Shown here: in pieces, positions 2-48,878 of the stretch
Layout of the letters: the number at the start of each line of letters is the position of its first letter
Position numbering within the stretch: position 1 is the first letter of the stretch
Source of the DNA: an uncultured Clostridia bacterium
GTDB taxonomy: Bacteria; Bacillota; Clostridia; Christensenellales; Borkfalkiaceae
DNA length: 64,000 nt
Reading direction: 5' to 3'
Assembly: GCA_947625385.1 (NCBI GenBank)
Contig: CANQOB010000006.1
Coordinates: 815-64,814, forward strand
Position numbers and translations under genes: made by a program
Notes under the pieces: model-generated
Databases searched by the model: none
Told to the model about the DNA's origin: nothing
The model's input: the letters and a program-made list of their open reading frames with translations, nothing else

Positions 2-2311
2 ATTCTGCTCTTTATCATCTTTCTCAATGCGTTCGTGGGATTTTTGCAGCAATACCGGGCGGACGCGGCGATCGAAAATCTGAAAAAGCTCTCCAAATGC
101 GAGGCGAAGGCGATACGGGACGGCAAGGTCGTCAAAATCGACGCGGAGGAGCTCGTCCCCGGCGATGTCGTCGAGATCGAAGAGGGCGACCGCGTGCCGG
201 CGGACTGCCGAATCCTTTCGAGCGAAGATCTCCGCTGCGACGAATCTGCGCTCACGGGGGAGTCGGAGCCCGTCAAAAAGCGGGACTGCGTTATCAAAAA
301 GAGCGCCCTCGCGGAGAGGGCGAATACGGCGTTTTCCTCGACCTTCTGCGTGAAGGGGTGGGCGCGGTGCGTCGTCGTCTCGTGCGGCAAGGACACCGAG
401 ACGGGCAAGATCGCAAATCTTCTCGAAGAGAGCCGCGCGGCGCTTTCGCCTCTCGATAAGACCATTGCCAAGCTCGGCAAGATCGTTACGGCGGTCGTCA
501 TCGCGGTCGCGGCGGCGCTGTTCTTCGGCGGTTTGCTTTTCAGGCGGGTGAGCCTTCTCGACAACATCATGGCAGCCGTTGCCGTCGCCGTGGCGGCGAT
601 TCCCGAAGGGATGGGGGCGGTCGTCACGGTCATCCTTGCGATGGGGGTGCAGCGCATGGCGAAGGAGGGGGCGGTCATGCGGCGGCTCTCCGCGGTCGAG
701 GCGCTCGGCAGTTGCAGCGTAATTTGTTCGGATAAGACGGGGACGCTCACCAAAAATCGCATGACGGTGGAGAAAACGGACGTCTGCTTTGCGGACGCCG
801 ACCGTGCGGAGGAGGAGCTTTTGCGGTGCATGCGCGCCTGCCATTCCGTAAAGGGGAGCGCGGGAAGCTATCTCGGCGACCCGACGGAGATCGCCCTGCT
901 CGAATATGCCGACAGGCGGAATTTTTCCTTTGCGTTCCGCGCTGCGGGGGGAGTTCCCTTCTCCTCGGAGCGCAAGATGATGAGCGTGCTCGCCATCTTC
1001 GAGGGGGGAGAAAGACTGTATGTAAAGGGGGGTGCGGACGTGCTCCTCAAAAAGTGTACGAAGAGGCTCTCGGGCGAAAACGAGGTACCCATGTCCGCGA
1101 AAGACCTCTCCGAAATACGGTCATGTACGGCACGGTACTCGCGGGAAGCGATGCGCGTGCTTGCCTTTGCCTACGGAAAAAAAGAGGAGAAAGAGCTCGT
1201 GTTTTTGGGGCTTGCCGCCATGCTCGACCCTCCCAAGGAGGGGGCGAAGGAGGCGGTCGCAGCGTGCAGGGAAGCGGGCGTCAAGACGGTGATGATCACG
1301 GGGGACAGCGCGGAGACCGCCTTCGCCATCGCCTCCCGCCTCGGCATCGCAGAGAGCCCCGAGGAGGTCGTCACGGGCGAGGAGATCGACGGGATGGGGG
1401 AAGCGCTTGCGCAAAGCGCCGACCGTTTTTCCGTCTACGCGCGCGTTGCGCCCGTCCACAAATCGCAGATCGTGAAGGCGCTGCAAGCGAGAGGGGAGGT
1501 CGTCGCCATGACGGGGGACGGCATCAACGACGCGCCCGCGCTCAAAGCCGCGGATATCGGCGTCGCCATGGGCTCGGGCACCGACGTAACGAAAAACGCC
1601 GCCGACGTGGTGATCTCGGACGACGATTTTTCGACGATGGTGCGCGCCGTCGAGGAGGGGCGCGGCGTTTTTTTCAATATCAAACGGACCATTTCCTTCT
1701 TCCTCTCCACCAACCTCGGGGAGGTGCTGTGCGTGCTCATCGTCTCCCTCTTCTTGTGGAGAGCCACCTTCCTCACGTCCACCCAGCTGCTGTGGGTCAA
1801 TCTCATTACGGATTCTTTGCCCGTTTTGGCGCTCGGCGTGGAGAGGACGAAGGGCGCGATGAAGCGTCCGCCCGTCTCGGACAAGGAGATCTTTTCGAAG
1901 AGCGCACTGCTGCGCATCGGATTTTTCGGCGCAGTGCAGACGGTCATCCTCGTCGCGGCGTTCGTGCTCGCGCTCTCGCAGTGGGGGAACGCCGTTGCGA
2001 GCACGGTCGCGTTCGTACTGCTCTCCAACCTCGAACTGCTGCATGCCTTCAACGTCCGCGCCGAGGACGGTGCGGGCGCGCCCCCGAACAGAGCGCTCTT
2101 TGTCACGGTGGCGATCGGGATCCTGCTCTCCGTTCTGCTCGTCGCAACGCCGCTCTGTGCGCTCTTTTCGCTTGTGCCGCTCTCGGCGGCGCAGTGGGCG
2201 TTCACTTCGGCGGCGTCCCTGCTCATTCTGCCCGCCGGGGCGCTGTACCGCGCCGCGGAAAATTTCAGAGGGCGCAAAAGACGTATCCGCGCCGCCGGAA
2301 TCCGTCGATGA
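2..2311 (+). CDS. P-type cation-transporting ATPase (type II, Ca2+-ATPase-like); 5' end cut by the window edge
   Basis: The frame is open from position 2. Motifs: TGES actuator (LTGESEP), phosphorylation site [11 protein letters not shown], hinge TGDGINDAP, and a hydrophobic C-terminal TM region. Confidence 0.9.
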
Positions 2312-2945
2312 TGGCGGGAAGCGCGCTTGCGGTCGCCTTTTGGGGGGCGGAATCGTGCAAGAGGAGGGTGACGCACTGCTTGCCCTCGGCGGTCTTTGCC
2401 GCGGTGCGCGCGAGGGTGGCGGCGTCGGCATACGGGTCGGTGCCGTCTCCGCAGACGGCGTTCCAATCCACGATGTGGTAGCCGCGCTCGGTCAGAAGGG
2501 CGCGCTCGCGGGCGTGCGTGCCGCCCCCGGGGAACCGGTAGAGGGTGGGGTGTTGCCCCGTCACCGCATAGATGACGGCGGCGCAGTCCTCCACGTCCCG
2601 AAGAAAGATCTCCTCGTCGGAATAGATTTTTTTGTATTCATGGCTCATCGAATGGACCCCGATGCTGTGCCCCTCTTCGGCGATGCGGGACAGGGTCTCT
2701 TCGCGCCCGTAGACGCGCTCGCCCACGATGAAGAAGGTCGCCTTGACGCCCTCCCGTTTCAATGTATCGAGGATGCGGTTGGTGACGACGGTGCTCGGAC
2801 CGTCGTCGAAGGTGAGATAGACCCGTTTTTCCTCCGCGGCGAAAGTGAACGTCTCGATGGCGGTCATCCTGCCGCCGAAGTGCGCGAGCAGCACGAGCAG
2901 CACGACGAAAAAGACGATGGCGATGCGGAGAGGCTTTTTGTTCAT
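2265..2945 (-). CDS. Polysaccharide deacetylase (NodB homology domain) with an N-terminal membrane anchor
   Basis: Motifs YLTFDDGPS, ATFFIVGERV and GVHSMSHE, plus a hydrophobic N-terminus (IAIVFFVVLLVLLA). ATG at 2945 is preferred; the track ORF extends to a TTG at 2984. The 3' end overlaps the convergent ATPase by 47 nt. Confidence 0.8.
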   Translation of the reverse strand: MNKKPLRIAIVFFVVLLVLLAHFGGRMTAIETFTFAAEEKRVYLTFDDGPSTVVTNRILDTLKREGVKATFFIVGERVYGREETLSRIAEEGHSIGVHSMSHEYKKIYSDEEIFLRDVEDCAAVIYAVTGQHPTLYRFPGGGTHARERALLTERGYHIVDWNAVCGDGTDPYADAATLARTAAKTAEGKQCVTLLLHDSAPQKATASALPAIIDGFRRRGYVFCAL

Positions 2946-3018
2946 ACCCCGAGTTTGGGGTATTTTTTTGCATTTTATGTGCAACAGAGCCCATTCGCGG
3001 GCGCGCGGAAATTTTTGA

Positions 3019-3048
3019 TTGACAAGGGCGCGCGGGGTGTGTTATAAT
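3019..3048 (+). promoter_or_regulatory. Sigma-A type promoter upstream of galM
   Basis: TTGACA at 3019-3024 and TATAAT at 3043-3048 (18-bp spacer). Confidence 0.5.
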
Positions 3049-3076
3049 TTTTCCGGTTTGTTACGGAGGGTCGCTT

Positions 3077-4075
3077 ATGATCACGGTTTCTGAATTCGGA
3101 AGGCTTTCGGACGGCACGCCCGTACATGCGTTCACCCTGCATGACGGCGAGCGCTCGGTGACGGTTCTCGACTATGCGGGCGCGGTGCAGAGCATCGTGA
3201 CGCCGGACAGGGAGGGGCGCCTTGTCAATGTTGCGCTCGGATATCCCGACGCGGCGGGCTACGAAAACGATACGTTCCACCTCGGCGCCATCGTGGGAAG
3301 GTGCGCGGGACGCATCAAGGAGGGCATGCTCGTCATCGACGGAAAGCTCTACAAGCTCAACTGCACGGACAGGGGGAACCATCTGCACGGCGGACCGGGA
3401 GGGTTCAGCCATAAACTCTTTTCGTATGCGGTCGTGGGGGATACGCTTGCGCTCACCTATATCTCCCCCGACGGCGAAGAGGGGTATCCGGGAAGGCTCA
3501 CCGCGACGGTCGTCTATACCTTTTCGGACGGCGCGCTGCGAATCCGCTACCTCGCCACGACGGACGCGCCCACGGCGGTCAACCTCACCAACCATACCTA
3601 CTTCAATCTCAGCGGCGGAGGGGATGTTCTCGGACACGTCGTGCGGCTGCATGCGGACAAGATCGTCAAAACGGACGAGACGATGGCAAGCTGCGGCGGA
3701 TTCCGCGACGTCGCGTTTACAGCCTACGATTTCAATACGCCCAAGGAAGTGGGGCGGGACATCAAGGGGGATGCGGGGCTCCTCTCGGAGGGCGGCTACG
3801 ACCATTCCTACCTCAATGCGGGCGGCGAGTTCGCCGAGATCTTCTCGCCCGTGACCGGCATCCGCATGACGCTGACGACCGATTTGCCTTCCGTACACTT
3901 CTATACGGGAAACGCGCTCCATGATGCGTTTTTGCCGCACGCGGGGCTGTGCCTCGAAGCGCAGCTCATCTCCAATAACGTCAATGTGGCGGAGTACCGC
4001 GCGCTTGGGAGCTCCTTCCTCCGCCCGGGGGAGAGATACGAACATACCGCAGTTTATCGGTTCGACACCGTTTAA
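3077..4075 (+). CDS. galM: Aldose 1-epimerase (galactose mutarotase)
   Basis: Motifs NHLHGGPGGF, EEGYPG and TNHTYFNL. SD GGAGGG lies upstream of the ATG. Confidence 0.85.
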   Translation: MITVSEFGRLSDGTPVHAFTLHDGERSVTVLDYAGAVQSIVTPDREGRLVNVALGYPDAAGYENDTFHLGAIVGRCAGRIKEGMLVIDGKLYKLNCTDRGNHLHGGPGGFSHKLFSYAVVGDTLALTYISPDGEEGYPGRLTATVVYTFSDGALRIRYLATTDAPTAVNLTNHTYFNLSGGGDVLGHVVRLHADKIVKTDETMASCGGFRDVAFTAYDFNTPKEVGRDIKGDAGLLSEGGYDHSYLNAGGEFAEIFSPVTGIRMTLTTDLPSVHFYTGNALHDAFLPHAGLCLEAQLISNNVNVAEYRALGSSFLRPGERYEHTAVYRFDTV

Positions 4076-4097
4076 CTCTTCGGATTTGCAGAGGATT

Positions 4098-4140
4098 CCG
4101 CGCCCCGCGTTGCGCCGCAACGCGGGGCGCGGTCTCGTTT
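4098..4140 (+). terminator. GC-rich hairpin terminator after galM
   Basis: CCGCGCCCCGCGTT..AACGCGGGGCGCGG at 4098-4132, followed by TCTCGTTT. Confidence 0.6.
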
Positions 4141-4171
4141 CGGTGCACGCGTTCCGGAAAAAAATCATAGG

Positions 4172-4975
4172 ATGGAGCGACCGCATTTTACGGGGGTCTT
4201 ACAAATGCAGTGGTTCCTATCTCTCGCGGCGTGGCAGCAGGCGATTCTCGTCTCGCTCGGGCTCTACCTGTCTACGGCGCTCGGCGCAAGCCTCGTGTTC
4301 TTCTCCAAAAAATTCCGTCCCGCCGCGCTCACCTTTCTTCTCGGACTGTCGGCGGGAATCATGGTCGCGGCAAGCTTTTTTTCGCTGCTTCTGCCCGCAC
4401 TTTCCTATGAGGGGGCGCTTCCCGCCTATGTGACGGTGACGCTCGGGTTCCTGCTCGGCGGCGCGTTCATCGTCGGCTCCGACTTCGTCTTTTCGCACAC
4501 AAAACACCGGGAGCGCACGCTCGGGCGGGAGAACAGCCTGCTCTTTCTTGCCGTGACGCTGCACAACATCCCCGAGGGAATGGCGGTCGGCGTCGCGCTC
4601 GCGGCGGCGGGCGGGGAAGCGGGTGCGCTCGCGGCGGCGGTCATCTTTGCGTTCGGAATCGCCGTGCAGAACTTCCCCGAGGGGGCGTGCGTCGCCTTTC
4701 CCCTGCGCGCGGCGGGCATCTCGCCCTTGAAGAGCTTTCTCTTTTCGCAGGGCTCGGGCGCGGCGGAGATTCCCTCCTGCATCCTCGGCGCGCTCGCGGC
4801 GACGGTCATCGGCGGATTTCTTCCGTGGGCGCTCTCCTTCTCCGCGGGGGCGATGATCGCCGTCGTCTGTGCCGAACTCATCCCCGAATGTTATGCGGGA
4901 AATAAGACGGTCGCCTCGTTCGGCGTGACCGTCGGGTTCGCCGTCATGATGATCCTGGACGTGGCGCTCGGATGA
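4172..4975 (+). CDS. ZIP family metal cation transporter (ZupT-like)
   Basis: Multi-TM protein with HNIPEGMAVG and QNFPEGA motifs. An alternative start at 4205 (MQWFLS) is possible. Confidence 0.8.
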   Translation: MERPHFTGVLQMQWFLSLAAWQQAILVSLGLYLSTALGASLVFFSKKFRPAALTFLLGLSAGIMVAASFFSLLLPALSYEGALPAYVTVTLGFLLGGAFIVGSDFVFSHTKHRERTLGRENSLLFLAVTLHNIPEGMAVGVALAAAGGEAGALAAAVIFAFGIAVQNFPEGACVAFPLRAAGISPLKSFLFSQGSGAAEIPSCILGALAATVIGGFLPWALSFSAGAMIAVVCAELIPECYAGNKTVASFGVTVGFAVMMILDVALG

Positions 4976-15139: not shown

Positions 15140-16411
15140 ATGGATATTTTGGTGATCGGGGGCGGCGGAAGAGAACATGCCGTCATCAAGAGTCTGAAAA
15201 AGAGCAAACGGTGCGGGAAAATCTACTGTCTCCCCGGAAACGGCGGCATCGCCGCGGACGCGGAGTGCTTCCCCGTCAAGGCGACGGATATCGGCGGCAT
15301 CGTGGCGTTTGCCAAGGAGCACCGCGTGGACTTTGCCGTCGTCACCCCGGACGATCCGCTCGTCCTCGGCTGCGTCGACGCGCTCGAAGAGATCGGCGTT
15401 CCCTGCTTCGGTCCGAACAGGGACGCGGCGATCTTGGAGGGCAGTAAAGTCTTTTCCAAAAATCTGATGCTGAAATACGGCATTCCCACGGCGGCGGCGA
15501 GAGAATTCGACGACCCCATGTCCGCGATCGGGTATCTGAAAACGTGCGATTTCCCCGTCGTCATCAAGGCGGACGGGCTGGCGCTCGGCAAGGGCGTCGT
15601 CATCGCCGCGACCTTCGAAGAGGCGCAATGCGCAGTCACGGATATGATGCTCTCCAAGGTGTTCGGCGAGAGCGGGAGCCGCATCCTCATCGAGGAATTT
15701 CTGACGGGACCCGAGGTATCCGTTCTCTCCTTTACGGACGGAAAGACGGTGGTGCCGATGGTCTCCTCCATGGACCACAAGCGCGCCTTTGACGGCGACG
15801 AGGGTCCGAATACGGGCGGCATGGGTACGGTCGCGCCCAATCCCTACTATACGCCCGAGATCGCAGAGCGGTGCATGCGCGAGATCTTTTTGCCGACCGT
15901 GCGCGCGATGGCGAGCGAGGGGAGACCTTTTTGCGGCTGTCTCTATTTCGGGCTCATGCTCACGCCGAAAGGTCCCAAAGTCATCGAATACAACTGCCGC
16001 TTCGGCGATCCCGAGACGCAGGTCGTGCTTCCGCTCCTGGAAAGCGACCTTCTCGAAATCATGCTTGCGGTCAGAAACGGGAGCCTTACCCCGGACATGG
16101 TACGCTTCTCTTCGGGCGCGTGCTGCTGCGTCGTGCTTGCCTCCAAGGGATATCCCAAGAAATACGAGACGGGGTTCGAGATCGAGATTCCGCGCACGGA
16201 GCGGGGAGAACAGATCTTCATCGCGGGCGCGAAGCGCGCGGACGGCAAGCTCTATACCTCGGGCGGAAGGGTGCTCGGCGCGGTCGCAACGGCGGATACC
16301 CTCAAAAACGCCGTCGAAAACGCGTACCGCCTTGCCCGCCGCATCCGGTTCGAAAACGCCGTGATGCGCAGCGACATCGGCGCACGCGCTCTTCGCGCGA
16401 GAGACGAATGA
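15140..16411 (+). CDS. purD: GAR synthetase (phosphoribosylamine-glycine ligase)
   Basis: ILVIGGGGREHA and an ATP-grasp region. SD GGAGGA is present. Confidence 0.92.
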   Translation: MDILVIGGGGREHAVIKSLKKSKRCGKIYCLPGNGGIAADAECFPVKATDIGGIVAFAKEHRVDFAVVTPDDPLVLGCVDALEEIGVPCFGPNRDAAILEGSKVFSKNLMLKYGIPTAAAREFDDPMSAIGYLKTCDFPVVIKADGLALGKGVVIAATFEEAQCAVTDMMLSKVFGESGSRILIEEFLTGPEVSVLSFTDGKTVVPMVSSMDHKRAFDGDEGPNTGGMGTVAPNPYYTPEIAERCMREIFLPTVRAMASEGRPFCGCLYFGLMLTPKGPKVIEYNCRFGDPETQVVLPLLESDLLEIMLAVRNGSLTPDMVRFSSGACCCVVLASKGYPKKYETGFEIEIPRTERGEQIFIAGAKRADGKLYTSGGRVLGAVATADTLKNAVENAYRLARRIRFENAVMRSDIGARALRARDE

Positions 16412-16490
16412 TCGGACGTCCGTAAAAGCGCAAAAGCGAATTCGCTCGTGAAATTTGTTGCCAAAACAAATTTCATGAAAGGAGAAATTT

Positions 16491-19400
16491 ATGGTTTACA
16501 GGGTGTACGTTGAGAAAAAAAGAGGATTCGACCATGAGGCGCAGACTCTCTTCGGCGAGTGCCGCGAACTTTTGAACCTCGGCGAGGTGGAGGGCGTCCG
16601 CATCCTCAACCGCTACGACGTCGAGGACATCGATGCGGACCTCTTTGACGTGGCGGTCAGGACGGTGTTCTCCGAGCCGCAGATGGACGTGGCGAGCGCG
16701 GGTGTGGACTTGAACGGCGCGCGCGTGTTCGCGACGGAGTTCCTGCCCGGGCAATTCGACCAGCGTGCGGACAGCGCGGCACAGTGCATCCAGCTCATCT
16801 CGATGGGCAAACGTCCCGTCATCCGCACGGCGAAGGTCTATGCGGTGTACGGGGAGAACGTCACCGAAGAGACGCTGTCCGCGCTCAAAAAATATGTCAT
16901 CAACCCCGTGGAGAGCAGGGAGGCGAGCCTTGCCATTCCCGCAACGCTGAAGATCGAGCATTCCATCCCCACCGAGGTGGAGACGCTGCACGGCTTCAAT
17001 GCGCTTGGTGCCGAAGAGCTCGCCGAATTCGTCAAACGGTACGCCCTCGCCATGGATGAGGACGACATCGCCTTCTGCCAGAATTATTTCCGCGGCGAGA
17101 GACGCGACCCCACGATCACGGAGATTCGCATGATCGATACCTATTGGTCCGATCACTGCCGCCATACCACCTTTCTCACGACGATCGACGGGGTGCATTT
17201 CGAGGACGAGCTCCTGCAAAAGACCTATGAAGAATACCTCGCGGCGCGCAGGGAACTCAGCCGCACCAAGCCCGTCAACCTCATGGATATCGGCACGATC
17301 GCGTGCAAACTTTTGAAAAAGCGCGGGCTGCTCGACAAACTCGACGAGAGCGAGGAGATCAACGCCTGCACCGTCAAGATCAAGGTCGACCGCGACGGAA
17401 CGAAAGAGGACTTTTTGCTCCTCTTCAAGAACGAGACGCACAACCATCCCACGGAGATCGAGCCCTTCGGGGGGGCGGCGACCTGCATCGGCGGTGCGAT
17501 CCGCGACCCGCTCTCGGGGCGGAGCTACGTCTATGCCGCCATGCGCGTGACGGGGGCGGGCGACCCGCTCGTGCCCGTCGGCGATACCCTTCCCGGGAAG
17601 CTTCCCCAGCGCAAGATCGTCACGACCGCTGCCGCGGGATATTCCTCCTACGGCAACCAGATCGGACTCGCGACGGGGCAGGTCGACGAAATGTATCATC
17701 CGGGATATGTCGCAAAGCGCCTCGAGATCGGAGCGGTCATTGCCGCGACGCCGGCGGAGAACGTGAGGCGGGAGCGTCCCGCGCCGGGGGATAAGGTCAT
17801 CCTTCTCGGCGGAAGGACGGGTCGGGACGGCTGCGGCGGGGCGACGGGGTCGTCCAAGTCGCACACCCTCGAATCCCTCTCCGTGTGCGGCGCGGAAGTC
17901 CAGAAGGGCAATGCGCCCGAGGAGCGCAAATTGCAGCGGCTCTTCCGCTCGCGGGAGGCGATGCTGCTCGTCAAGCGGTGCAATGACTTCGGCGCGGGCG
18001 GCGTGTCCGTCGCCATCGGAGAGCTCGCGGACGGGCTCGATATCGACCTCGACCTCGTTCCCAAAAAATATGACGGGCTCGACGGCACGGAGCTTGCGAT
18101 CTCGGAGAGCCAGGAGCGTATGGCGGTCGTCGTCGAGGCGGACAAGGCTATGCGGTTCATCGAGCTCGCGAACGAGGAAAACCTCGAAGCGACCGTCGTC
18201 GCCACGGTGACGGCTTCTCCCCGCCTCGTGATGCGCTGGAACGGAAAGGTCATCGTGAACGTTTCGCGCGAATTTTTGAATTCCAACGGCGCGGAGAAGC
18301 ACACCGACGTCGCTCCCGAAGCCTGCAAGGACTTCGCGCGGGAGATTCCCGGCACGTTCTCCGCGGGGCTGCGAAGCCTCGCTGCCGACCTCAACGTCTG
18401 TTCCAAGAGGGGACTTGCGGAACGGTTCGACAGCACCATCGGCGCGGGCACCGTGCTCATGCCCTTCGGCGGGAAGTACCAGATCACGCCGCCGCAAGCC
18501 ATGGTGCATCTCATCTCCTGCGAAACGGGTCACACCGACACCGTCTCCTATATGGCGTGGGGCGCAAATCCGTACATCGCCGAAAAGAGCCCTTACCACG
18601 GCGCGTATTTCGCCGTCGTGGAGAGCGTTGCAAAGCTCATCGCGAGCGGCGCGTCCTTCGATGACGTCTATCTCACCTTCCAGGAATATTTCTTAAAGCC
18701 CGGGAAGGAGCCCAAGCGCTGGGGGCAGCCGTTCGCGGCTCTTTTGGGCGCATTCAAGGCGCAATGCGATCTCGGCGTCGCCGCCGTCGGCGGAAAGGAT
18801 TCGATGAGCGGCACCTTTGAGCAGATCGACGTTCCGCCCACGCTCGTCTCCTTTGCGGTGACGACGGGGAATGTCTCCGAGACGATCTCTCCCGAGTTCA
18901 AGGGCGCGGGGCATAAAGTGGTTTTGCTGGAACCCGCCTATGACGAAAACGGCTTGCCCGTGCCGCAGTCGCTGATCGCCAATATGCGCACGGTGACGGC
19001 GCTCGCCCGCGCAAATAAAGTGCTCGCCTGCTTTACGCCCGGATACGGCGGCATAGCGGAGGGCATCATGAAGAGCTGCTTCGGGAACAGAATCGGCATC
19101 CGAATCGCGGACATGGTACCCCTGAAAACGATCTTCGAATATAAATACGGCGCGTTTGTCCTCGAACTTTCCGACGAGAGCGAGGTGGGGAGCGAGCTCG
19201 GCAGGACGACGGGTGCGGAGCTCATCGGTCACGGGCTGGATATCGTCTCCCTCGCCGAATTGCAGGCGGTCTATGAGAAAAAACTCGAGCCCGTGTATCC
19301 CTGCAACATTCCCGCCCCGAACCGTGCGGCGGAAAACTTTACCTTCGCCGAACGGGGGAATTTCTCCTCCCTTGTCAAGGCGGCGCGCCCGAAGGTGCTC

Positions 19401-33200: not shown

Positions 33201-35790
33201 CCCGCTCGGTGCGAATTTCTGCGACCGCAACGGCAGAATCAACGAAAAGAAGAGGCAGGAGTTCCTCAAAGACCTCTATGCCCTGCATGCGCAGGCGGAG
33301 GAGACCTTCCTCGATTACAATCCCGACGCATTCGACGGTATGTGCATCCGCGCCGCAAACGGCTATACCATGCCCGTGCTCGAAGGGTGCATCAAGGCTG
33401 CGGAGAGCTACTTTGCGGCGGAGGGGAGCTTCCTTGCGGTGACCTGCGCGGACCCCGCCAAGGTGCGCGGCGAGGACGTGTTCGACTACTTCTCGCAGAA
33501 GGCTTCCGCGCTCATCGACAACGTGGATATGCTCCCCAACTGGTGCATGTACCGCGCGACGGCGAAAAAACTTGCCGCCATGGGGCTCAACTTCATTACG
33601 GACGCCTTGGAGAGCGGCAGGCTCAAAGTCGAGAACGTGCTTGCGGGCTTCGAAAAGAACGTCTACAAGAACTTCCTCGAGATCACCATTCCGCAGGACG
33701 AGGCGCTTTCCCGTCTGACGGTGGGCACCCTCGAGGATACGGTGGAAAAATTCCGCCTTGCGTGGGAGGAATACAGCAGAATCTCCCGCGACTGTCTGCG
33801 CGCCGCTTTGATCTCCCGTCTGCCGAAGCCGGACGGCGAGGGGATGCTCGGACCGGAGCTCTCCGCGTTCACCCGCCTTGCCAAGACAAACCTGCGCGGC
33901 TCGGGCATCCGCGCGATGCTTGCCGAGATCCCGTCGCTTGCCGCCGTCGTCTGCCCCTGTCTGCTCATGAGCCCCATCACGGTGGCGCAATATCTCAAAC
34001 CCGAGGCGGACGCGTTCGACCTCGTGATCTTCGACGAGGCGTCCCAGATGACGACCGCGGAGGCAGTCGGCTCGATCGCCCGCGCCAAGGCGTGCGTCGT
34101 CGTCGGCGACCCCAAACAGCTCCCGCCCACCGCCTTCTTCCGCTCCTCCTATACGGATGAGGAGGCGGAAGGGGAGGAACTCGAGAGCGTGCTCGACGAC
34201 TGTCTCGCCCTCGGGATGCCCGAGCGGCATCTCCTCTGGCACTACCGCAGCAAGCACGAGAGTCTCATCGCGTTCTCCAACAGCATGTACTACGGCAACC
34301 GGCTGTGCACCTTCCCCTCCCCCGACGCGCTCGAAAGCAGGGTGAAACTCGTCAAGGTGGACGGCACCTACGACCGCGGGTTCACCAAGCGCAACAAGAA
34401 GGAGGCGGAGGCGCTCGTCGCCGAGGTCGTCAGGCGGTTGCAGGATCCGGAACTCTCCAAACGGAGCATGGGAATCGTCACCTTCTCGACGGCGCAGAGG
34501 GACGACATCGAGAGACTTTTGAACCGCGAGATCGCGCGTTTCAAACTCGAAGCCGCCGCATTCGACAGAGAGGAACCGCTCTTCGTCAAGAACCTCGAAA
34601 ACGTGCAGGGGGACGAGCGGGACGTCATCCTGTTCTCCGTCTGTTACGGTCCCGACCGCTTGGGGCGCGTCTCGCTCAATTTCGGACCCCTCAACCAGGC
34701 GGGCGGCTGGCGGCGGCTCAACGTCGCGGTGTCGCGTGCAAGAGAGGAGATGCTCGTGTTCTCCACCATGACCTCGCCCATGATCGACCTCGCAAAAACG
34801 ACGTCCAAGGGCGTCGCGGGGCTCAAAGCGTTCCTCGAATTTGCGGAGAGGGGCAAGACGACGCTTGCCGTGCGCGCCGACAGCGTGCGCTTCGGCGCGG
34901 GAATCGGAAAATACCTCGCCGCCGAACTCGAAAGCTACGGCTACGATTGCCGCTACGACGTGGGCGCCTCCGATTTCAAGCTCGACGTCGCCGTCGTCGA
35001 CCCCAAGAACAAGCACCGCTTTTTGCTCGGCATCCTCTGCGACGGCACGGAGGAATTCTCCGTCAAAGACAGAAATATCTTGCAGGTACAGACCTTAAAG
35101 CGCATGAATTGGAACGTTCTGCGCGTCAACAGCGTCAATTACTATAATAACCCCAAGCGGGAGCTCAAACGCATCAAGGATGTGCTCGACCGCCTGACGG
35201 GCGCGGACAAGAAGGGAGACCGGCTGTCCAAATACCGCAAACCGTACAAATTCGTCAAACAGACCGCCTCCGAGACGGCGGCGTTCGTCACTTCCGGCGA
35301 CAACGACGCGGAGATCGTCGCCCGCCTCAAAGAGATCGTCGCGACGGAGGAACCCATCTCGCGCGCATTTCTGCGGAAACGCTGTCTCATGAGCTTCGGA
35401 ATCGCCAAGAGCGGCACCCGCGTGGACGCCCGTCTCGACGCGCTCATCGACAGCTGCGCCTTCCCCCGCGACCGCGTGCAGGGCGTGGACTACTTCTACA
35501 AGAATCCCCGCTGTCTGCAACTCGGGAAATTCCGCGTGGAGAGCGTTTCTCCCGCTTTGCGGCGGGGGGAGGACGATTTCACGGTGTACGAGGTCGTCTC
35601 CCTCATCAAGGGCGCGCTGGAAGAGCGGGTAGCGCTCTATCCCGACGAGCTCACCGCCCTGCTCGGGAATGTGTTCGCCGATCTGCGCTCGGGAGAACGC
35701 TTCCTCGCGTTTTTGCAAAGCTGTATCACCTACGGCGAAGAGAAGGGACTCTTCGTGAGATCGGTGTCGGATAGGATAAGCTTGGCTTAG
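30211..35790 (+). CDS. Large SF1 (UPF1/DNA2-like) helicase with a DUF4011-like N-region, a restriction-endonuclease-like domain and a DUF3320-like C-terminus
   Basis: Walker A VLHGPPGTGKSQT, Walker B LVIFDEASQM, VVGDPKQLPPT, HYRSKHESLI, VQGDERDVILFS, LNVAVSRAREE. DUF4011-like LLDLTYKNTLLSF. REase-like DVGASDFKLDVAVVD...LGILCDG. SD GGAG lies 8 nt upstream of ATG 30211. Confidence 0.85.
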   Translation: MAVKRKVITEKLTVGLSFPKYIGYADYFLQTPLRIRIKSTFEEALTLTVSVSGAEGLLLPYERTVEVPFESAVSVENSGVFSPEYLAEVTEPHTVSVNVSVRLDGKEVAGESAEITVLPFDFWEGLSGNAERIACFVRPRNNDCAVLLADAGKQLKKWRADAEFYGYSGTDKNTVRRILAAIYQSVKTAGIAKDGETDCSAPLSAVRETSVLKEKRATAFQLAVLAASCLEAAHFHPVIAVGKDVAVGVWLYDSCFLEPAFDDAEIVERYVSDGINNLSFFDADDLFVGSSAPFTPSEGHFRSKLKEGYYEYFVDIRRCRMGGIGSCPMRGKSIKGFEVYSEESGDEPAPLPVFRDLKLDGKLPKNKLWERRLLDLTYKNTLLSFEGKNALHLASPGCDALLLRLAEKGSMKLKAGGEEAFGAEVSPQKRSLYELEQQKGILRVLADQKTLTETAGKLLRRRREAVEETGAKILYLALGFLKYVSREDGLPKCAPLVLCPVSLARAKGNEDFSVLAADEGYFVNATLLEFLKQEFNIDIRGLGGDVSALKLSEIFAMVRAETASMKGWDIAEDVYLSVFSFQNFLLWNDIRTHIDEFSKNATVSALLTGYAEKREFPAAQEEDNDDPERILLPLPLDSSQYGAVSLADTGASFVLHGPPGTGKSQTISAIIANALLHGKRVLFVAEKKAALDVVKKRLDAIGIGDFSLELHSNKTDKAGVLRRMEATLALAGREEPVGFGERTRELVALREELKEPMRALHKTRRLGISVYQAILGYLKNKNAPDILDIESSFYDSLDEKKLSECKQMILTAAAAAKDCGGVFNSPFENVNRTVYSQELRDRLFCACEVILTEIKHLRAFLALFLEFYRQRISTLTRKKLLSLTEIAKDLASGKYRKYFADVDEGEFYRFYNANRRLDACLAYYFRHFKAPVETEDAEEIARMLENGGDWKLFRPARAAFKRLSRVAILPLDEADAPKFLQTLADIDAAQKRITENTPLGANFCDRNGRINEKKRQEFLKDLYALHAQAEETFLDYNPDAFDGMCIRAANGYTMPVLEGCIKAAESYFAAEGSFLAVTCADPAKVRGEDVFDYFSQKASALIDNVDMLPNWCMYRATAKKLAAMGLNFITDALESGRLKVENVLAGFEKNVYKNFLEITIPQDEALSRLTVGTLEDTVEKFRLAWEEYSRISRDCLRAALISRLPKPDGEGMLGPELSAFTRLAKTNLRGSGIRAMLAEIPSLAAVVCPCLLMSPITVAQYLKPEADAFDLVIFDEASQMTTAEAVGSIARAKACVVVGDPKQLPPTAFFRSSYTDEEAEGEELESVLDDCLALGMPERHLLWHYRSKHESLIAFSNSMYYGNRLCTFPSPDALESRVKLVKVDGTYDRGFTKRNKKEAEALVAEVVRRLQDPELSKRSMGIVTFSTAQRDDIERLLNREIARFKLEAAAFDREEPLFVKNLENVQGDERDVILFSVCYGPDRLGRVSLNFGPLNQAGGWRRLNVAVSRAREEMLVFSTMTSPMIDLAKTTSKGVAGLKAFLEFAERGKTTLAVRADSVRFGAGIGKYLAAELESYGYDCRYDVGASDFKLDVAVVDPKNKHRFLLGILCDGTEEFSVKDRNILQVQTLKRMNWNVLRVNSVNYYNNPKRELKRIKDVLDRLTGADKKGDRLSKYRKPYKFVKQTASETAAFVTSGDNDAEIVARLKEIVATEEPISRAFLRKRCLMSFGIAKSGTRVDARLDALIDSCAFPRDRVQGVDYFYKNPRCLQLGKFRVESVSPALRRGEDDFTVYEVVSLIKGALEERVALYPDELTALLGNVFADLRSGERFLAFLQSCITYGEEKGLFVRSVSDRISLA

Positions 35791-36185
35791 GTTTCGCGCG
35801 ATTTCTTTTGCTGCGCAAAATAAATACGCGCGAGCGAATGAGCATGTATGCCTCAATAAGCTTGATTCCGATTATATGTTTCATCGGACAGTAAGCCTGC
35901 GGTGGCGTTGCAAATGGGGTCGCGCAGCGCAAAAGCGTGGTTTTGCTCGCGCACAAAATTTAAGAATTTCGGCGAAAATCTTTGCTGCGCAAATATTTTC
36001 GTCGAGCGAATGGGCGTTGGCGGCTTAATTGACTTGGCTCCGATTAGATGTTTCATCGGACAGTAAGCCGAAAGGGTTCGGCAACTTGGGTCGCCCACGG
36101 CGGAAGTGAATTCCGCCTAAGGCACAAAATTTAAGAGTTTCGCGCGGTTTCTTTTGCTGACGCAAAATAAATACGCGCGAGCGAA
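35791..36185 (+). repeat. Array A of an unrecognised hairpin-rich intergenic repeat: units 35791-35966 and 35967-36137 plus a terminal head module 36138-36185
   Basis: Head-to-tail units share head modules (GTTTCGCGCGATTTCTTTTGC..GCAAAATAAATACGCGCGAGCGAA and TTTCGGCGAAAATCTTTGC..GCAAATATTTTCGTCGAGCGAA), the core CCGATTAGATGTTTCATCGGACAGTAAGCC and the tail ACAAAATTTAAGA. The array starts directly after the helicase stop codon. Confidence 0.9.
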
Positions 36186-38448: not shown

Positions 38449-38670
38449 TTTCGGCGAAAATCTTTCCTGCGGAAATATTTTCGTCGAGCGAATAGGCGGG
38501 TATGCTTTAATAAACGTGATTCCGATTAGATGTTTCAACGGACAATGTGCGTCCCGTGGGGCGCAAATGCAGTGAAAAAGCAAAAAGTGTGATTTTTGCT
38601 TTTTCCTTTATTTTTAGGTTTCGCGCGATTTCTTTTGCTGACGCAAAATAAATACGCGCGAGCGAATAGG
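38449..38670 (+). repeat. Array B of the same repeat family: unit 38449-38617 plus a terminal head module 38618-38670
   Basis: Same module order as arrays A and C. It starts at the nucleotide after the ktrA stop codon TAG (38446-38448). Confidence 0.9.
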
Positions 38671-38690
38671 TGAGTTTCATTTTTATCATC

Positions 38691-38721
38691 AAAAAATCCT
38701 CGCTTGCGGCGAGGATTTTTT
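38691..38721. terminator. Bidirectional intrinsic terminator (fba on the - strand; repeat array B on the + strand)
   Basis: AATCCTCGC (38695-38703) pairs with GCGAGGATT (38709-38717), flanked by an A6 tract and a T6 tract. Confidence 0.75.
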
Positions 38722-45900: not shown

Positions 45901-46448
45901 GCGACAAGATCGAGAAGATTCACATGGTCGAGAACTATAACTACTACGGTCTCGACCCGTGGGACCGCTTCACCGTCCTCGCCGAGCGCACGAACAAGAA
46001 CGGAACGCATACGGTCTACGCCGAAGGACAGCGGCAGAACGGCTATGGCGTCATCGGCGTGCTCTATACCATCTCCTACAATGCGGATACCGACATTATT
46101 ACGATGGAGGAGAAGCGCGACGGGAACAACATGACGGGCATGGTGTCGGTAGAATTCGATACAGCGCATGAAACGCAGGCGCCGTATGACAGGCTGACCG
46201 TCAACGTCATCACCTACACGGCGGGAGATGAAGAGGCGCACATGTTCGCCTTCGGCTCCGTACGTCACTTCGAGTACGATACGCAGCGCAACACGTACCT
46301 CTCCACCTATCCGGAATATACCGTGACGGAGGCGGACTACCTCAACGGCACATTCACCGTGCAGGTCGGCGATACGACCTATACGGTCACGACGAGCTAC
46401 GACGAAGAGACGGCGGCTTGGAAGCTCGCAGTCACCGTCGCCGAGTAA
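39960..46448 (+). CDS. Giant (2162 aa) cell-surface lipoprotein with Listeria-Bacteroides (Flg_new) repeats and a BspA-type LRR segment
   Basis: Signal peptide and lipobox LAFAVAAC|T. At least 4 N-terminal repeats of the VTFDANGG...F.GW type. LRR_5-like segment around nt 44640-45130 (IDAHAF, IGDYAF, VGDYAF, IGVNAF). Long D/E/T/Y-rich central region with no recognisable domain. Confidence 0.8.
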   Translation: MSKKLKKILITVLAAAFAAVLAFAVAACTNTTVSVTFDANGGEFEGGKQSVSVEGNAGEELKVPQDPARGGFNFIGWASEKDGDPVGVPEKIPEESQTYYACWIPEGEVAVTFDANGGNFAGNTLRVLTGKPGDVLVPPQDPTREGFSFSEWSSTKNGTLTSVPMVFPDHNLTFYAIWQETGAQSYTLTVTYGIRDGRVGAQTTRVRDVLPGTSIAGALAEVDPASGDSEIVFDGWYYADGTKLAEGAAMPAENLTLRAKYTVAYTLTVSLQEKDGETYGEPSTTTERGFYGERFTYQAPEGFETDARHEGSKFSSERLDKGETFTVFAARRRYTVTFTVGGNGVNEARDFLTLWYGAEYVIPSFETTSLSGMVPADVFVFSWTTAEGDTLRAGDTLTVSGAMTVRGDISFGKTDIFGGDDHLFVDGDTAFLRRGALERMGSFDRTTGVFRFENGGKEVLGGVAMSETFYFYNDTTEKDYVDFFGGAAKLRFLYHGEAEYTPAGSSSAASGKLTVSEETGRYTFTPADGGDSVEFTLDVLYDAHDVPHPAFRTESEHEEGAFARLEDKSDPYGYDYTVLVFDGFGYVTEYYDPTLADSSDEYEREFFGHYNGSVGRYYRYTDELWAGAEYYTIEFPDGDSYTVELTFADGLPALDNRPLAGTWFAYDGMLGEGDYLVGVPIAGGRAAGFCAGINASNASLILDGFGNALLDLGATYDETNCTYADLHWTGTYVIRSEVVYGYGLDGMGAYTSATMLDWIEYTDSETGEVTLYSFDMSYRTYAEMASAPKRYTVAADDLSIFGTSVMEEYFYKSKIPFTEVLFLDVRGDATEIYIYGRRDDAPIWSATDGREIVALYEPIEAGVATHADGVYTFTSSSQTPTIATMRFTLNEVTMTVDVLSGAEEPAEEQIITDEETGEVFRLDESGAAYYQKSESDEEVEITAHRDTLGEEDDDFETGEQYAVWRSGFYRFDLPDGTTAYFTYRIEEDGSVTYTRIEEPTFYTLTSASYLDRPELEIYFYKTDDGKYYLGYMPDDGYTFWAGETTPIEGIDNAFTFVMQETFRETFEYYTGVSTENLRLKLSESDHTFVLYDGTLTATDSLTNTTMSTDGFGTLTLTVGGEETQYPYALRDVGDGKTVLVYATYAKEYVNDDGLTIGQAEEHYIIVDTANNTFVFAEKDAGVYYAASLTSGGVGIAQYAFELDGDGHVILSEPNVAERRGTYEETGTLANSATMLSLVGFEYDLTLYTFTFTDEEGNEDKVDVAAFHTNELTYVMDGETYLFVPLGFFFERMPAATADIKTEDGMGFIKSDGYVSYNTIAIADAVYDNGMRVYVGTVMRGTYVNDSFYAEERDFVFDEEGTGTMLLFEAYDENNEVSDQFFFDIIEKDGVEYARLRTTDSGLYVETVGGDITNNTLLLDGYGNATLTRSGEEIEGTVERVDGEWGSYIFTGKDDNETTFKFGLFLLTANSGDYVYTFVYANDGDAAGYLVGDDWSVLYLDDYFNAYYIDHAGKRYDGAYSFLTERRSIASLTLEDGSILYFDLDFEHGSFELDERDFIVEEGGDGTLLAYTGNGSISKFPDEVKRITRNSFPYGDYISAPGTMDLNKVEVIDAHAFHFVNLGASLISGPNVREIGDYAFRQEFFDFGEYGIYHSVSAFSFPNAVSVGDYAFCGDYTVSSFVFGSALQSIGVNAFSVRQGLPVSLDLSAMTAEELAAVSIGENAFQSYYLGEPVDNSIINALVYVKDVETLVAFWKDGTWPLAFRNGATLRSAHADDLDGYDFYSFSAGKYLHFSEGRVSFIGEDGTSEPQAMYFIEEDGSVKVIRRSANDEVSYVELVRTDDIIQYGGHKYFRASNLMKGNTQHGVQLDDGVMFYFELLITRDIEDDAYESRSVRGVYVNDRSEDARIVPESYDYADGKLTIVFVYDGTDIAKGKYTVTVDLEGDTLSATYSMIDQRYVYNVEEGTSYNRSSYRILADFAGDKIEKIHMVENYNYYGLDPWDRFTVLAERTNKNGTHTVYAEGQRQNGYGVIGVLYTISYNADTDIITMEEKRDGNNMTGMVSVEFDTAHETQAPYDRLTVNVITYTAGDEEAHMFAFGSVRHFEYDTQRNTYLSTYPEYTVTEADYLNGTFTVQVGDTTYTVTTSYDEETAAWKLAVTVAE

Positions 46449-46461
46449 GCGAAAAACAAAG

Positions 46462-46487
46462 AAGGACGGCAGACGCCGTCCTTTTTT
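46462..46487 (+). terminator. Intrinsic terminator after the giant lipoprotein gene
   Basis: AAGGACGGC, loop AGAC, GCCGTCCTT, followed by a T-run. Confidence 0.8.
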
Positions 46488-46499
46488 CATGGGTTTTCC

Positions 46500-46528
46500 T
46501 TGACAAGAGAGGGGATTTCGGGTACAAT
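46500..46528 (+). promoter_or_regulatory. Sigma-A type promoter of ruvC
   Basis: TTGACA at 46500-46505, 17-bp spacer, TACAAT at 46523-46528. Confidence 0.5.
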
Positions 46529-46534
46529 AAAAAT

Positions 46535-47032
46535 ATGGTCATTCTTGGGCTGGACCCCGGCTACGGCACGATGGGGTACGGCGTCATCGAAAAGGACGCA
46601 AGGGGAAATTGCACCTGCGTGGACTATGGTGCGGTCAAGACTCCCGCCTCGGAGAGCTTCCCCGTGCGGCTGTGCATGCTCGAAGAGGGCGTCAATGCGC
46701 TGTTCGACAAATTTCATCCCGAAGAAGCGGCAATGGAGGAGCTGTTCTTCTCCAAAAATATCACGACGGGTATCGCCGTCGCGCATGCGCGCGGGGTCAT
46801 TCTGCTCACCTGCAACAAGCGCTGCGGCAGAATCTTCGAATATACGCCCAATCAGATCAAACAGGCGCTCACGGGCTACGGCGGCGCGGATAAAGGGCAG
46901 ATGCAGAGGGTGGTCGCCTCGCATCTGCGCCTCAAAAGGATTCCTCGTCCCGACGACGCCGCGGATGCCCTCGCCGTCGCGCTCTGCCATGCGTTCACGA
47001 GCAGATTTTCGGGGATGTTTGGAATCAAATAA
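46535..47032 (+). CDS. ruvC: Crossover junction endodeoxyribonuclease RuvC
   Basis: ILGLDPGYGTMGYGVI ... EELFF ... DAADALAVALCH. ATG 46535 follows a consensus promoter. Confidence 0.9.
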   Translation: MVILGLDPGYGTMGYGVIEKDARGNCTCVDYGAVKTPASESFPVRLCMLEEGVNALFDKFHPEEAAMEELFFSKNITTGIAVAHARGVILLTCNKRCGRIFEYTPNQIKQALTGYGGADKGQMQRVVASHLRLKRIPRPDDAADALAVALCHAFTSRFSGMFGIK

Positions 47033-47034
47033 GA

Positions 47035-47424
47035 TTTCGGCGAAAATCTTTGCGTGCGCAAATCTTTTCGTCGAGCGAATTTACTTCTGCGCCTTAACGA
47101 ACTTGGCTCCGATTAGTCGTTTCAACGGACAGTGTGCGTCCCGTGGGGCGCAAATTGTGTCGCGCAGCGCAAAAGCGTGGTTTTGCTCGCGCACAAAATT
47201 TAAGAGGTTTCGCGCGATTTCTTTTGCATTCGCAAAATAAATATGCGCGAGCGAATGGGCGTTTACGCCTCAATAGGCTTGGCTCCGATTAGTCGTTTCA
47301 TCGGACAGTGTGCGTCCCGTGGGGCGCAAATTGTGTCGCGCAGCGCAAAAGCGTGGTTTTGCTCGCGCACAAAATTTAAGAGTTTCGGCGAAAATCTTTG
47401 CGTGCGCAAATCTTTTCGCCGAGG
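47035..47424 (+). repeat. Array C of the same repeat family: units 47035-47206 and 47207-47382 plus a terminal head module 47383-47424
   Basis: Segments 47101-47206 and 47277-47382 are identical apart from one mismatch. The array starts 2 nt after the ruvC stop codon. Confidence 0.92.
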
Positions 47425-47481
47425 CAAAAATACAAAAGATACGAACTAAATTCACCGCGATAGAGCGCGGAAAGAGGATAT

Positions 47482-48084
47482 ATGATCGGGTATCTGAAAG
47501 GAAAAGTGAAACATGTGGCTCCCGAGAGCGTGCTTTTGGAAGTCGGCGGCGTCGGCTACGAGATCGTGTGCTCCGGTGCGGCGTTTTCCCGCCTTGCGAG
47601 CGTCAAGAGCGGCGAGGAGGGCGAAGTCTTTACCTATCTGCGCGTTTCGGAGGACGACATCACCCTCTTCGGCTTTGCGGACCTTCGCGAAAAGGAGCTC
47701 TTTTTGCGGCTCACCTCCGTGCAGGGCGTGGGGGCGAAAGTCGCCATGAGCATCCTCTCCTCCATGCGCCCCGCAGATGTCTCCGAGGCGATCGCAACGG
47801 CGGATGCAAAGCGGCTCTCCGCGGCAAAGGGCGTGGGCAAAAAGGTTGCCGAACGCATCATTTTGGAGCTGCACGGCAAGATCTCCGCGGACGAGCTCCT
47901 CGGCTCGGAATCGGTGGGCGGGAGAGTATCGGCGGCACCCATGTCCGAGGATGAGGACGCAGTTTCCGCGCTCATGGGGCTCGGATTCACACGGCAGGAG
48001 AGCGCGCAGGCGGTCTCCCGCGCAAAGGCGCAAGGGGCGAAGTCCGTCGAGGAGATCATCGCAACGGCTCTGAGGGGGATATGA
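47482..48084 (+). CDS. ruvA: Holliday junction DNA helicase subunit RuvA
   Basis: MIGYLKGKV ... VGGVGYEI ... LTSVQGVGAKVA, typical of RuvA. Confidence 0.9.
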   Translation: MIGYLKGKVKHVAPESVLLEVGGVGYEIVCSGAAFSRLASVKSGEEGEVFTYLRVSEDDITLFGFADLREKELFLRLTSVQGVGAKVAMSILSSMRPADVSEAIATADAKRLSAAKGVGKKVAERIILELHGKISADELLGSESVGGRVSAAPMSEDEDAVSALMGLGFTRQESAQAVSRAKAQGAKSVEEIIATALRGI

Positions 48085-48878
48085 TGAAGGAGTTCACCGT
48101 CAAGGAAGGGACCGTCAAGGTGGACGGCATGGAAGTCGAGGAGGACTGTACCCGCCTCATCCTTCCGCCGAGCGTAAGAGAGATCGACGACTTTGCCTTC
48201 TTCGGCAACGGGACGCTTGAAGAGGTCGTCTTTTCCGAGGGGCTTCAACGCATCGGGGACTGTGCGTTCCGCGAATGCACGGCGCTCAGATCGCTCGTCT
48301 TTCCCGCGAGCCTGCAAACGGTCGGAAGTTCGGCGTTCATGGACTGCTCTTCCCTCGAAAGCGCCGTCTTTACGGGCGGCGGTCCCAAGGAGCTCCCCAC
48401 GGAGATGTTCTGCAACTGCAAGGCATTGAAAACGGTTCGGCTCGGTTCGGCGCTCCAAAATCTGAGTACGGGCATGGAGATCGGCGGCACCTTCGAAGAT
48501 TGCCTCTCGCTCGAAGAGATCGTTTTGCCCGAAGGGTGCGAGATCATCGACTGGGCGGCATTTTCGGGCTGCAAAAACCTCTCCCGCATCGTGCTCCCCT
48601 CCACATTGCAGAAGGTCGGCGAGAAATCGCTCTACGGCACGGCGGTCAAAGAGCTCGTCTTTGCGGAGGGGCTTCGGAGCCTCTGGAAGGCGATATACGG
48701 CTGCGAAAAGCTCACGCGCATCGTGCTCCCCTCCACGGTGACGTCGCTCTCCTACAAGGAGTTCGGCGGGGGACTTCCGAGCCTTCGCGAAGTCGTTTTG
48801 CCGAAAAGGTTCGAAGGGGACCTCGAGCTGTACTTTCAAAAAGAGGACTTCAGGCGCATCCACATCACGTTTATTTGA
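48081..48878 (+). CDS. BspA-type leucine-rich repeat (LRR_5) protein with no signal peptide
   Basis: Repeats of the form I.D.AF..C..L..VV.P..L..IG..AF. The start overlaps the ruvA stop (ATGA). Confidence 0.75.
   Translation: MMKEFTVKEGTVKVDGMEVEEDCTRLILPPSVREIDDFAFFGNGTLEEVVFSEGLQRIGDCAFRECTALRSLVFPASLQTVGSSAFMDCSSLESAVFTGGGPKELPTEMFCNCKALKTVRLGSALQNLSTGMEIGGTFEDCLSLEEIVLPEGCEIIDWAAFSGCKNLSRIVLPSTLQKVGEKSLYGTAVKELVFAEGLRSLWKAIYGCEKLTRIVLPSTVTSLSYKEFGGGLPSLREVVLPKRFEGDLELYFQKEDFRRIHITFI

Follow-up and report, generated by a model that had tools for sequence, protein, structure and literature searches.

Proteobacteria, pneumococci, and Neisseria are well-documented hosts of small mosaic repeats, which, to our knowledge, have hardly been described in uncultured gut Clostridia. 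The repeat described here was found in a 64,000-nucleotide stretch of one such genome (an uncultured Clostridia bacterium, contig CANQOB010000006.1), referred to below as the window. One of its copies, array C, lies between ruvC and ruvA. Each repeat unit consists of a palindromic head, a body of hairpin cassettes, and an A/T-rich tail. With moderate confidence, array C is interpreted as a non-autonomous mosaic repeat resembling repetitive extragenic palindromes (REPs), bacterial interspersed mosaic elements (BIMEs), and Neisseria intergenic mosaic elements (NIMEs). The head end would land on TA-rich gene-boundary sequence, the insertions would be filtered by selection, and the arrays would change by recombination between heads. 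The family follows an unusually sharp positional rule: for roughly one copy in three, the palindromic end lies no more than a few bases from a stop codon.

By analogy, the element appears to resemble a known kind of repeat in which overlap with stop codons has a precedent. In GTAG REPs, the TAG-containing terminus beside the palindrome frequently serves as, or overlaps with, the stop of the upstream open reading frame (ORF) (Di Nocera et al. 2013, PMC3733652). The present repeat shares with GTAG REPs and BIMEs its short imperfect palindromes with G-T pairs in the stems, its high copy number, its intergenic location between unidirectional or convergent genes, and its frequent clustering into mosaics (PMC3733652). 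The head, however, is 45-49 nucleotides in length, compared with 20-40 nucleotides for a REP, and is only the first module of a multi-hairpin unit. A constant GTAG or CGTC tag, as in the GTAG REPs, is not apparent, and the flank reads TTAG, ATAG, TAAG, or TTTG. A TAG, TAAG, or TTAGG stands before the head in 13 of 43 array starts and at most of the internal junctions. The base preceding TAG is variable, and the remaining 30 starts are without the motif.

NIMEs consist of dRS3 inverted repeats flanking RS units. The three arrays of the window (A, B, and C) have a comparable layout, (head-body)n-head, in which the array starts and ends with a short palindrome, and both kinds of element lie downstream of genes. 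Both also have interchangeable internal units, suggesting recombination between palindromes. The present repeat differs in showing no sequence similarity to NIMEs, in having no known link to a phage integrase or insertion sequence (IS), and in its host, which belongs to a Gram-positive-type Clostridia lineage. In addition, the arrays of relatives often end in a full unit with no terminal head or run into other modules. The Firmicutes repeats RUP, BOX, and bcr1 (for the pneumococcal repeats, PMC3049150), which are similar to transposable elements of the miniature inverted-repeat kind (MITEs), are also comparable. They are approximately 100-200 nucleotides long, non-coding, modular (BOX A-B-C), and rich in hairpins; they vary in copy number between strains and are co-transcribed with flanking genes, as would be expected here. 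Unlike these, the present repeat has no terminal inverted repeats apart from the head palindrome, and no cognate IS was identified for it.

The ruvC gene (46535-47032, + strand; 165 amino acids, PF02075) encodes a protein with the native C-terminus ...FSGMFGIK and ends with TAA at 47030-47032. The ruvA gene (47482-48084, + strand; 200 amino acids) starts with ATG at 47482. The spacer between them is 449 nucleotides long, and these positions had been given correctly in a sequence-only reading of the window that preceded this analysis. Array C fills 47035-47423 (approximately 390 bases, + strand) in the order head 1, body, head 2, body, head 1. Unit C1 contains a type 1 head at 47035-47079, an imperfect palindrome of -18 kcal/mol that begins 2 nucleotides past the ruvC stop (TAA-GA/TTTCGG; here and below the slash marks the junction). 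Its body, at 47080-47206, contains the hairpins TCCGAT...ATCGGA, GCGTCCC...GGGCGC, and GCGCAGCGCAAAA...TTTTGCTCGCGC and ends with the tail AAAATTTAAGAG. Unit C2 contains a type 2 head at 47207-47255 (GTTTCGCGCGATTTCTTTTGC...GCAAAATAAATATGCGCGAGCGAA, -19 kcal/mol), and its body, at 47256-47382, is a near-copy of the C1 body. The two bodies match over 105 nucleotides (47102-47206 and 47278-47382), with the sole mismatch at position 47125; the single mismatch had been noted before, and the identical stretch had been measured as 106 bp. The array ends with a lone type 1 head at 47383-47423, where unit homology stops at ...CGCCGAG. The last 58 nucleotides (47424-47481) are a unique spacer holding the ruvA ribosome-binding site (RBS), GAAAGAGGA, at 47470-47478. 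Approximately the last 20 nucleotides of this spacer are similar to the corresponding region of a relative (contig L005).

An assembly artefact was considered as the source of array C and was ruled out. The same junction between ruvC and array C is present in an independent ENA contig (L001), which breaks within the repeat, and array C is covered by unitigs of rabbit-gut metagenomes.

No terminator-like site was found on either strand of 47033-47481, the nearest being located upstream of ruvC and within ruvC. The only promoter-like site in 46300-47700 is a sigma-70-like promoter before ruvC (TTGACA-17-TACAAT at 46500-46528, + strand), leaving array C without a promoter of its own. With neither a terminator nor a promoter in array C, the sequence predicts read-through into ruvA. 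The earlier proposal that the hairpins act as terminators and uncouple ruvA-ruvB from ruvC therefore finds no backing at this level.

The complete unit is approximately 175 nucleotides long, with a body of approximately 125 nucleotides and a tail of the form ATTT(T/A)AG. The head stem starts at the G of GTTTCG and has a minimum free energy of -18 to -21 kcal/mol, with z-scores of -2.5 to -3.7. At TAG/TTTCG junctions, the G of the stop codon is consequently the first paired base. Alignment of 47 distinct units revealed alternative sequences at every hairpin position, all of which still fold. Two head types exist with several stem-loop variants (GC...GC and CC...GG), and the last hairpin has three unrelated versions (GCGCAGCGCAAAA with TTTTGCTCGCGC, GGCGGAA with TTCCGCC, and AAAAAGCAAAAA with TTTTTGCTTTTT). 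The repeat is a cassette-like mosaic rather than one conserved RNA. When folded, the array is more stable than shuffled sequence on both strands, as palindromes would be. RNAalifold recovered only 12 pairs from the mixed alignment, as the different cassettes do not stay in register there, and the hairpin variants were folded separately by type. No Rfam 15 family matched the window at the gathering threshold, and none matched 46980-47520 at E <= 1.

The last hairpin module, GCGCAGCGCAAAAGCGTGGTTTTGCTCGCGC (47144-47193 and 47329-47369), has a summed unitig depth of 1500-3200 in rabbit-gut metagenomes, compared with approximately 12 for the flanking genes. This module circulates far more widely than the whole unit. 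It was also found in one RNA-seq run (X20) in other sequence contexts; this run is silent on read-through from ruvC to ruvA.

The family is lineage-restricted and was found only in a few rabbit-gut Clostridia. The head 1 pattern matched 36 loci in public genome contigs, all of them from three rabbit-gut metagenome-assembled genomes (MAGs) labelled uncultured Clostridia (Lapin-021 bin91, Lapin-032 bin126, and Lapin-027 bin2). An nhmmer search with a profile of five window units returned 77 hits in the window, a sister contig, and the three MAGs, which reduce to 43 non-redundant arrays. One MAG holds at least 40 arrays in the approximately 290 kb sampled, all outside called genes. Sequencing runs that contain window sequence are mostly from rabbit-gut or other gut and faecal metagenomes. 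The body-core pattern TCCGATTANNNGTTTCANCGGACA had no match in public genome contigs or metagenome contigs, and this motif is specific to the window genome. The window contains 5 occurrences of the core motif, where 0 would be expected. The head pattern had no match in JGI metagenomes or viral contigs, and a blastn search of the repeat against plasmids and phages returned nothing. Array C is probably a local expansion of this lineage-restricted repeat.

The other two arrays of the window also follow genes directly. Array A (35790-36185, + strand; head 2, body, head 1, body, head 2) is flush with the 3' side of the TAG stop of a DUF4011 helicase gene, and array B (38449-38667, + strand; head 1, body, head 2) is flush with the 3' side of the ktrA TAG. 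The three arrays start as GCTTAG/GTTTCGCG (A), AAATAG/TTTCGGCG (B), and AAATAAGA/TTTCGGCG (C), the last of which is spelled out as AAA-TAA-GA/TTTCGGCG. The observation that the first head begins 0-2 nucleotides past the upstream stop was reproduced at all three genes. A further claim, that TAG or TAAGAR precedes each head, is correct for 8 of the 8 heads in the window. Five of these, however, are internal junctions (TAAGAA/, TAAGAG/, TTTTAG/G, TAAGAG/G, and TAAGAG/) that represent the conserved 3' tail of the unit itself (...ACAAAATTTAAGAG), copied along with it. Because they derive from one copied tail, the internal junctions are not independent, and only the three array starts count as independent events. 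The tail reads TTTTAGG or TTTTAAG in relatives, and the TAAGAR version is specific to the window genome.

The position of the repeat relative to genes was surveyed using the 43 non-redundant arrays of four genomes (the window and the three MAGs). Gene ends were called with a codon-score model trained on long ORFs, which separates real genes from shadow frames. Thirteen arrays start 0-4 nucleotides past a real co-oriented stop, and 19 start within 11 nucleotides. The individual distances are 0, 0, 0, 1, 1, 2, 2, 2, 2, 2, 3, 3, 4, 5, 5, 6, 7, 9, and 11 nucleotides. In the control, 0.7% of random non-genic positions were within 4 nucleotides of a stop, rising to 2% when the position was preceded by TAG or AAG. 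The observed 13 of 43 exceeds the expected 2% with a binomial p of ~2e-12. The proposed association with stop codons is therefore upheld for this part of the family. It does not describe the whole, as 11 of the 43 arrays lie right against the RBS of a divergently oriented gene, 12-34 nucleotides from its start codon, and the remaining arrays are preceded by terminator T-runs or by a duplicated half head. Relative to neighboring genes, approximately 21 arrays are in the sense orientation and 12 are antisense. In sense cases with well-defined neighbors, the left gap is 3 nucleotides or less and the right gap is at least 54 nucleotides, so short spacers do not account for the flush position.

The 13 flush stops comprise nine TAA, three TAG, and one TGA, compared with a background at these loci of 47% TAA, 44% TGA, and 9% TAG. 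TGA is depleted (p = 0.0055), and the enrichment of TAG is not significant (p = 0.11). Six genes have an array 5-11 nucleotides past the stop, and four of them end in TGA. In three of the six (two ending in TGA and one in TAA), the head is immediately preceded by a TAG or TAAG that is out of frame (TGAGTTAG/, TGAAAGATAG/, and TAAGGTTTTATAAG/). A TAA or TAG ending 0-2 nucleotides before the head was found in 13 of 43 arrays and at 4% of control positions (p = 8e-9), and four of these 13 triplets are not the gene's own stop. Between positions -2 and -9, the left flanks have an A/T content of 70-90%, and a G occupies -1 in 29 of 43 arrays. By score, these flanks are nearer to the unit tail than control gene ends or random sequence are. 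The preference operates on sequence, probably TA-rich sequence followed by G or microhomology with the tail, with no frame-aware recognition.

Proteins were compared with and without the element. KtrA ends in ...KFTNSHK-TAG with the element (window) and in ...KFMNSTK-TAA without it (bin91). KtrB ends in ...FFIG-TGA without the element (window) and in ...FFIG-TAA with it (bin91). The end residue is the same in each pair; the two stop triplets are different. Of 120 helicase homologues, 74, with identities as low as 59%, carry the tail RSVSDRISLA, and the others have conservative variants of the same length. RuvC ends in ...FG(I/V)(K/R/Q) at 165 amino acids in most of 120 homologues. One exception is the RuvC of bin91, which lacks the last codon and reads FGV (GTG)-TAG/GTTTCGTGCG..., with a half head directly after the stop. 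A 164-amino-acid RuvC also occurs without any element, in L052 (TCGATA-TAA-AGGTGGAAT-ATG). As judged from these alignments, the element leaves protein ends unchanged, contrary to the earlier suggestion that terminal codons are replaced, which is refuted under the condition that had been set for it. The likeness of the ktrA and helicase 3' ends to the unit, which had been proposed for CTCGCACAAATAG (to the tail) and ATAAGCTTGGCT (to the core), was rejected, as the homologue alignments identify both as native conserved coding sequence.

A syntenic region of 15 kb is common to the window and bin91 (L005). Five gene ends within this block bear an array in either genome, and all of these arrays are 0-6 nucleotides from the stop. 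The helicase end has arrays in both genomes, with a different head type and junction. The ktrB end and the end of a large lipoprotein gene have an array in bin91 only, and the ktrA end has one in the window only. At the ruvC end, a full array is present in the window and a 21-nucleotide half head in bin91. Metagenome unitigs of other strains read K-TGA/GTTTCGCGCG and K-TA/GTTTCGCGCG at the ruvC end, for a total of four distinct flush junctions across strains. In four metagenomes, no unitig linked the two flanks of array C, as an empty site would give. The comparison shows that arrays have been gained and lost in individual lineages.

The length of the ruvC-ruvA spacer varies among relatives. 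It is 9 nucleotides in L051 and L052, where it consists of the RBS only, and 51 (L048), 90 (L009), 115 (L053), 116 (L005), and 145 (L002) nucleotides in the others. Tight linkage of ruvC and ruvA is likely the ancestral state, and the junction is a hot spot for hairpin-type inserts. In L002 (10499-10643), which has 91% RuvC identity, the spacer is filled by a different low-complexity repeat of AAAACAGCGG and AAAACAGCGC units, with TAAGAG right after the stop. Head-like hairpins or fragments occur right after the ruvC stop in L053 (10499-10613), L048 (10499-10549), and L009 (10499-10588). These fragments (TAAG/TTTAAAAATAATTCCGAAAAAGAC...TTTTTTCGGAA, TTTCCGAGG, and ATTCGCGGGATC), which are without statistical support from nhmmer, may be decayed heads.

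Under the favored interpretation, copies would spread and turn over as DNA, and the head-to-tail arrays would grow by recombination between heads. The head end would land on, or recombine at, a short TA-rich sequence followed by G. In a genome of 59% GC, such sequence would be concentrated at gene boundaries, in the form of TAA and TAG stops and the T-rich complement of RBSs. Selection would then retain only those insertions that spare the reading frame, the RBS, and the terminator. The expected outcome is a head hairpin whose first paired base is 0-2 nucleotides past the stop, or is the G of TAG itself, with the protein unaltered. Within the ruvCAB operon, the array would most likely be transcribed through as part of the mRNA. 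The occurrence of both orientations is more readily explained by an element acting as DNA than by an RNA tied to one strand.

Several results weigh against this interpretation. No gene for a mobilizing protein, such as a transposase or a REP-associated tyrosine transposase (RAYT, a Y1 HUH enzyme whose gene is flanked by REPs in RAYT-associated families), was found; a tblastn search with the E. coli RayT returned no hit better than E = 0.66 in approximately 509 kb, which is a fraction of the genomes. No pair of filled and empty alleles from a single species was recovered that would define the insertion boundaries and any duplication or microhomology. All heads within the arrays are in direct orientation, unlike the REPs of BIMEs, which alternate. 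The gene ends in relatives are codon-score calls and not curated annotation. Finally, a 3-nucleotide motif alone is too common to account for the enrichment at stops (2% in the control), and it must be supplemented by selection that keeps genes, RBSs, and terminators intact or by some other targeting cue.

The position of the arrays could instead be set by function. The repeat would be a selected RNA-level module whose hairpins protect or process mRNA ends, serving in the sense orientation as a barrier to 3' exonucleases after the stop and in the antisense orientation as a 5' stabilizer upstream of the RBS. REPs are known mRNA stabilizers (PMC3733652). The head hairpin starts beside or within the stop codon, antisense heads end right against the RBS, hairpins are retained despite total replacement of their sequence, and an array in an operon without a terminator would be transcribed. 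This explanation is nonetheless unlikely, given that arrays occur in both orientations, that no Rfam family was matched, and that array number, head type, and presence vary between close relatives at the same gene. The ancestral 9-nucleotide ruvC-ruvA junction works without the element, and the sole RNA run found has only the last hairpin module, in other contexts. A somewhat less probable explanation dispenses with targeting. Here a few old insertions into very short operon spacers would have been inherited vertically and homogenized by gene conversion, and would be flush only because the remainder of each spacer (RBS, promoter, or terminator) tolerates no interruption. Consistent with this, the ancestral ruvC-ruvA spacer is essentially an RBS, the right-hand gaps of 54-103 nucleotides hold an RBS, promoter, or terminator, and both genomes, the window and bin91, have the helicase site and the ruvC site occupied. 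The near-identical bodies of array C also suggest recent conversion or duplication. However, three of the five syntenic sites are occupied in one genome only, and neither the bias for TAA and TAG over TGA nor the A/T-rich left flanks would be expected from constraint alone. Element-free spacers are 22-148 nucleotides long (for example, between ktrA and its terminator and between ktrB and ktrA), yet the arrays are found at the first 0-2 nucleotides.

The least probable of the explanations considered is true homing to stop codons, for which the odds appear poor. Machinery would recognize the stop or termination site, with insertion or recombination at the head palindrome steered to the point where translation ends, or the element would supply its own TAG or TAA as the stop of the gene. 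The proposed cues are ribosome-free nascent RNA, R-loops past the stop, or a nuclease reading TA(A/G)G beside a hairpin. The flush position of all three window arrays and of the five occupied syntenic gene ends agrees with this, as do the four different flush junctions at the ruvC end. Two of the four TAG-terminated genes of the window have a flanking array, and the bin91 RuvC is one codon short, with GTG-TAG followed by the half head. The distances to the stop are nevertheless spread over 0-11 nucleotides instead of being fixed, no more than 13-19 of the 43 arrays have a co-oriented stop nearby, and 11 face the RBS of a divergent gene. At three loci, the TAG or TAAG beside the head is not in frame, the presence of the element makes no difference to C-termini, 164-amino-acid RuvC forms exist without it, and the TAG enrichment is not significant by itself. 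If homing were true, the repeat could renew or supply stop codons and build structured 3' untranslated regions (UTRs) inside operons.

Derivation from known transposable elements was also considered. None of arrays A, B, and C carries a direct repeat of its left flank on the right side, unlike MITEs, which have a target-site duplication. Palindrome-associated transposable elements (PATEs) derived from IS200/IS605 have a constant target of 4-5 nucleotides directly 5' to the hairpin of the left end, and each of their ends has a subterminal hairpin. An origin as such a PATE was rejected, as the left flanks vary (TAG, TAAG, TTTG, CTTG, TTTT, ATGA, and others) and the foot of the hairpin is 0-3 nucleotides from the junction. 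Targeting of CTTG, as in IS91-like elements, was rejected, as the CTTG belongs to the leader of a duplicated half head. An IS630-like TA duplication and an integron attC site were rejected as well, with no duplication and no core site present.

The family inflates a ruvC-ruvA junction of normally 9 nucleotides to 449 nucleotides without introducing a terminator. It offers a natural system for studying site choice by hairpin repeats and the de novo formation of 3' UTRs inside operons. It also allows the question of whether a hairpin unwound by the terminating ribosome affects termination, mRNA decay, or downstream expression. In practice, short-read assemblies break at the repeat and hence precisely at gene ends, as in L001, which stops inside the array, and the repeat can mislead stop-codon and operon calls in MAGs.

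A degenerate fourth copy is present in the window at 16375-16475 on the - strand, with its head end directly upstream of the RBS of a + strand gene starting at 16491. It contains a head-like perfect hairpin (GAAATTTGTT...AACAAATTTC) and mirrors the antisense class of relatives. A bidirectional terminator is predicted after array B at approximately 38690-38720.

Most of the bin91 copies consist of one unit of approximately 170 nucleotides to which other shared, C-rich modules are joined, for example, GAACTCGTACCCACCCCCCTACCCCCCTCCGCGGGAGGGGG and GGAAATGACACCCCCTCAGTCACTGCGTGACAGC, forming mosaics of 400-750 nucleotides. These mosaics were seen at L005 (411-1157 and 9374-9873) and in L031, L037, L041, L044, and others. 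The extra modules (GAACTCGTACCCACCCCCCTACCCCCCTCCGCGGGAGGGGG and the like) are absent from the window. In L031, two inverted mosaics (1537-2029, - strand, and 3730-4192, + strand) with their heads facing inward enclose a 1.7-kb segment. This segment was rejected as a transposon; it encodes a hexapeptide acetyltransferase, rplM, and rpsI, and no transposase.

Insertions in the ruvA-ruvB-queA-tgt string vary by relative (L009, 13704-13979; L002, 11257-12045 and 13136-13894; window, 48081-48878). LRR_5 proteins are encoded in some relatives, both in the ruvA-ruvB interval and after ruvB, where others have none, and one relative has a GIY-YIG gene between queA and tgt.

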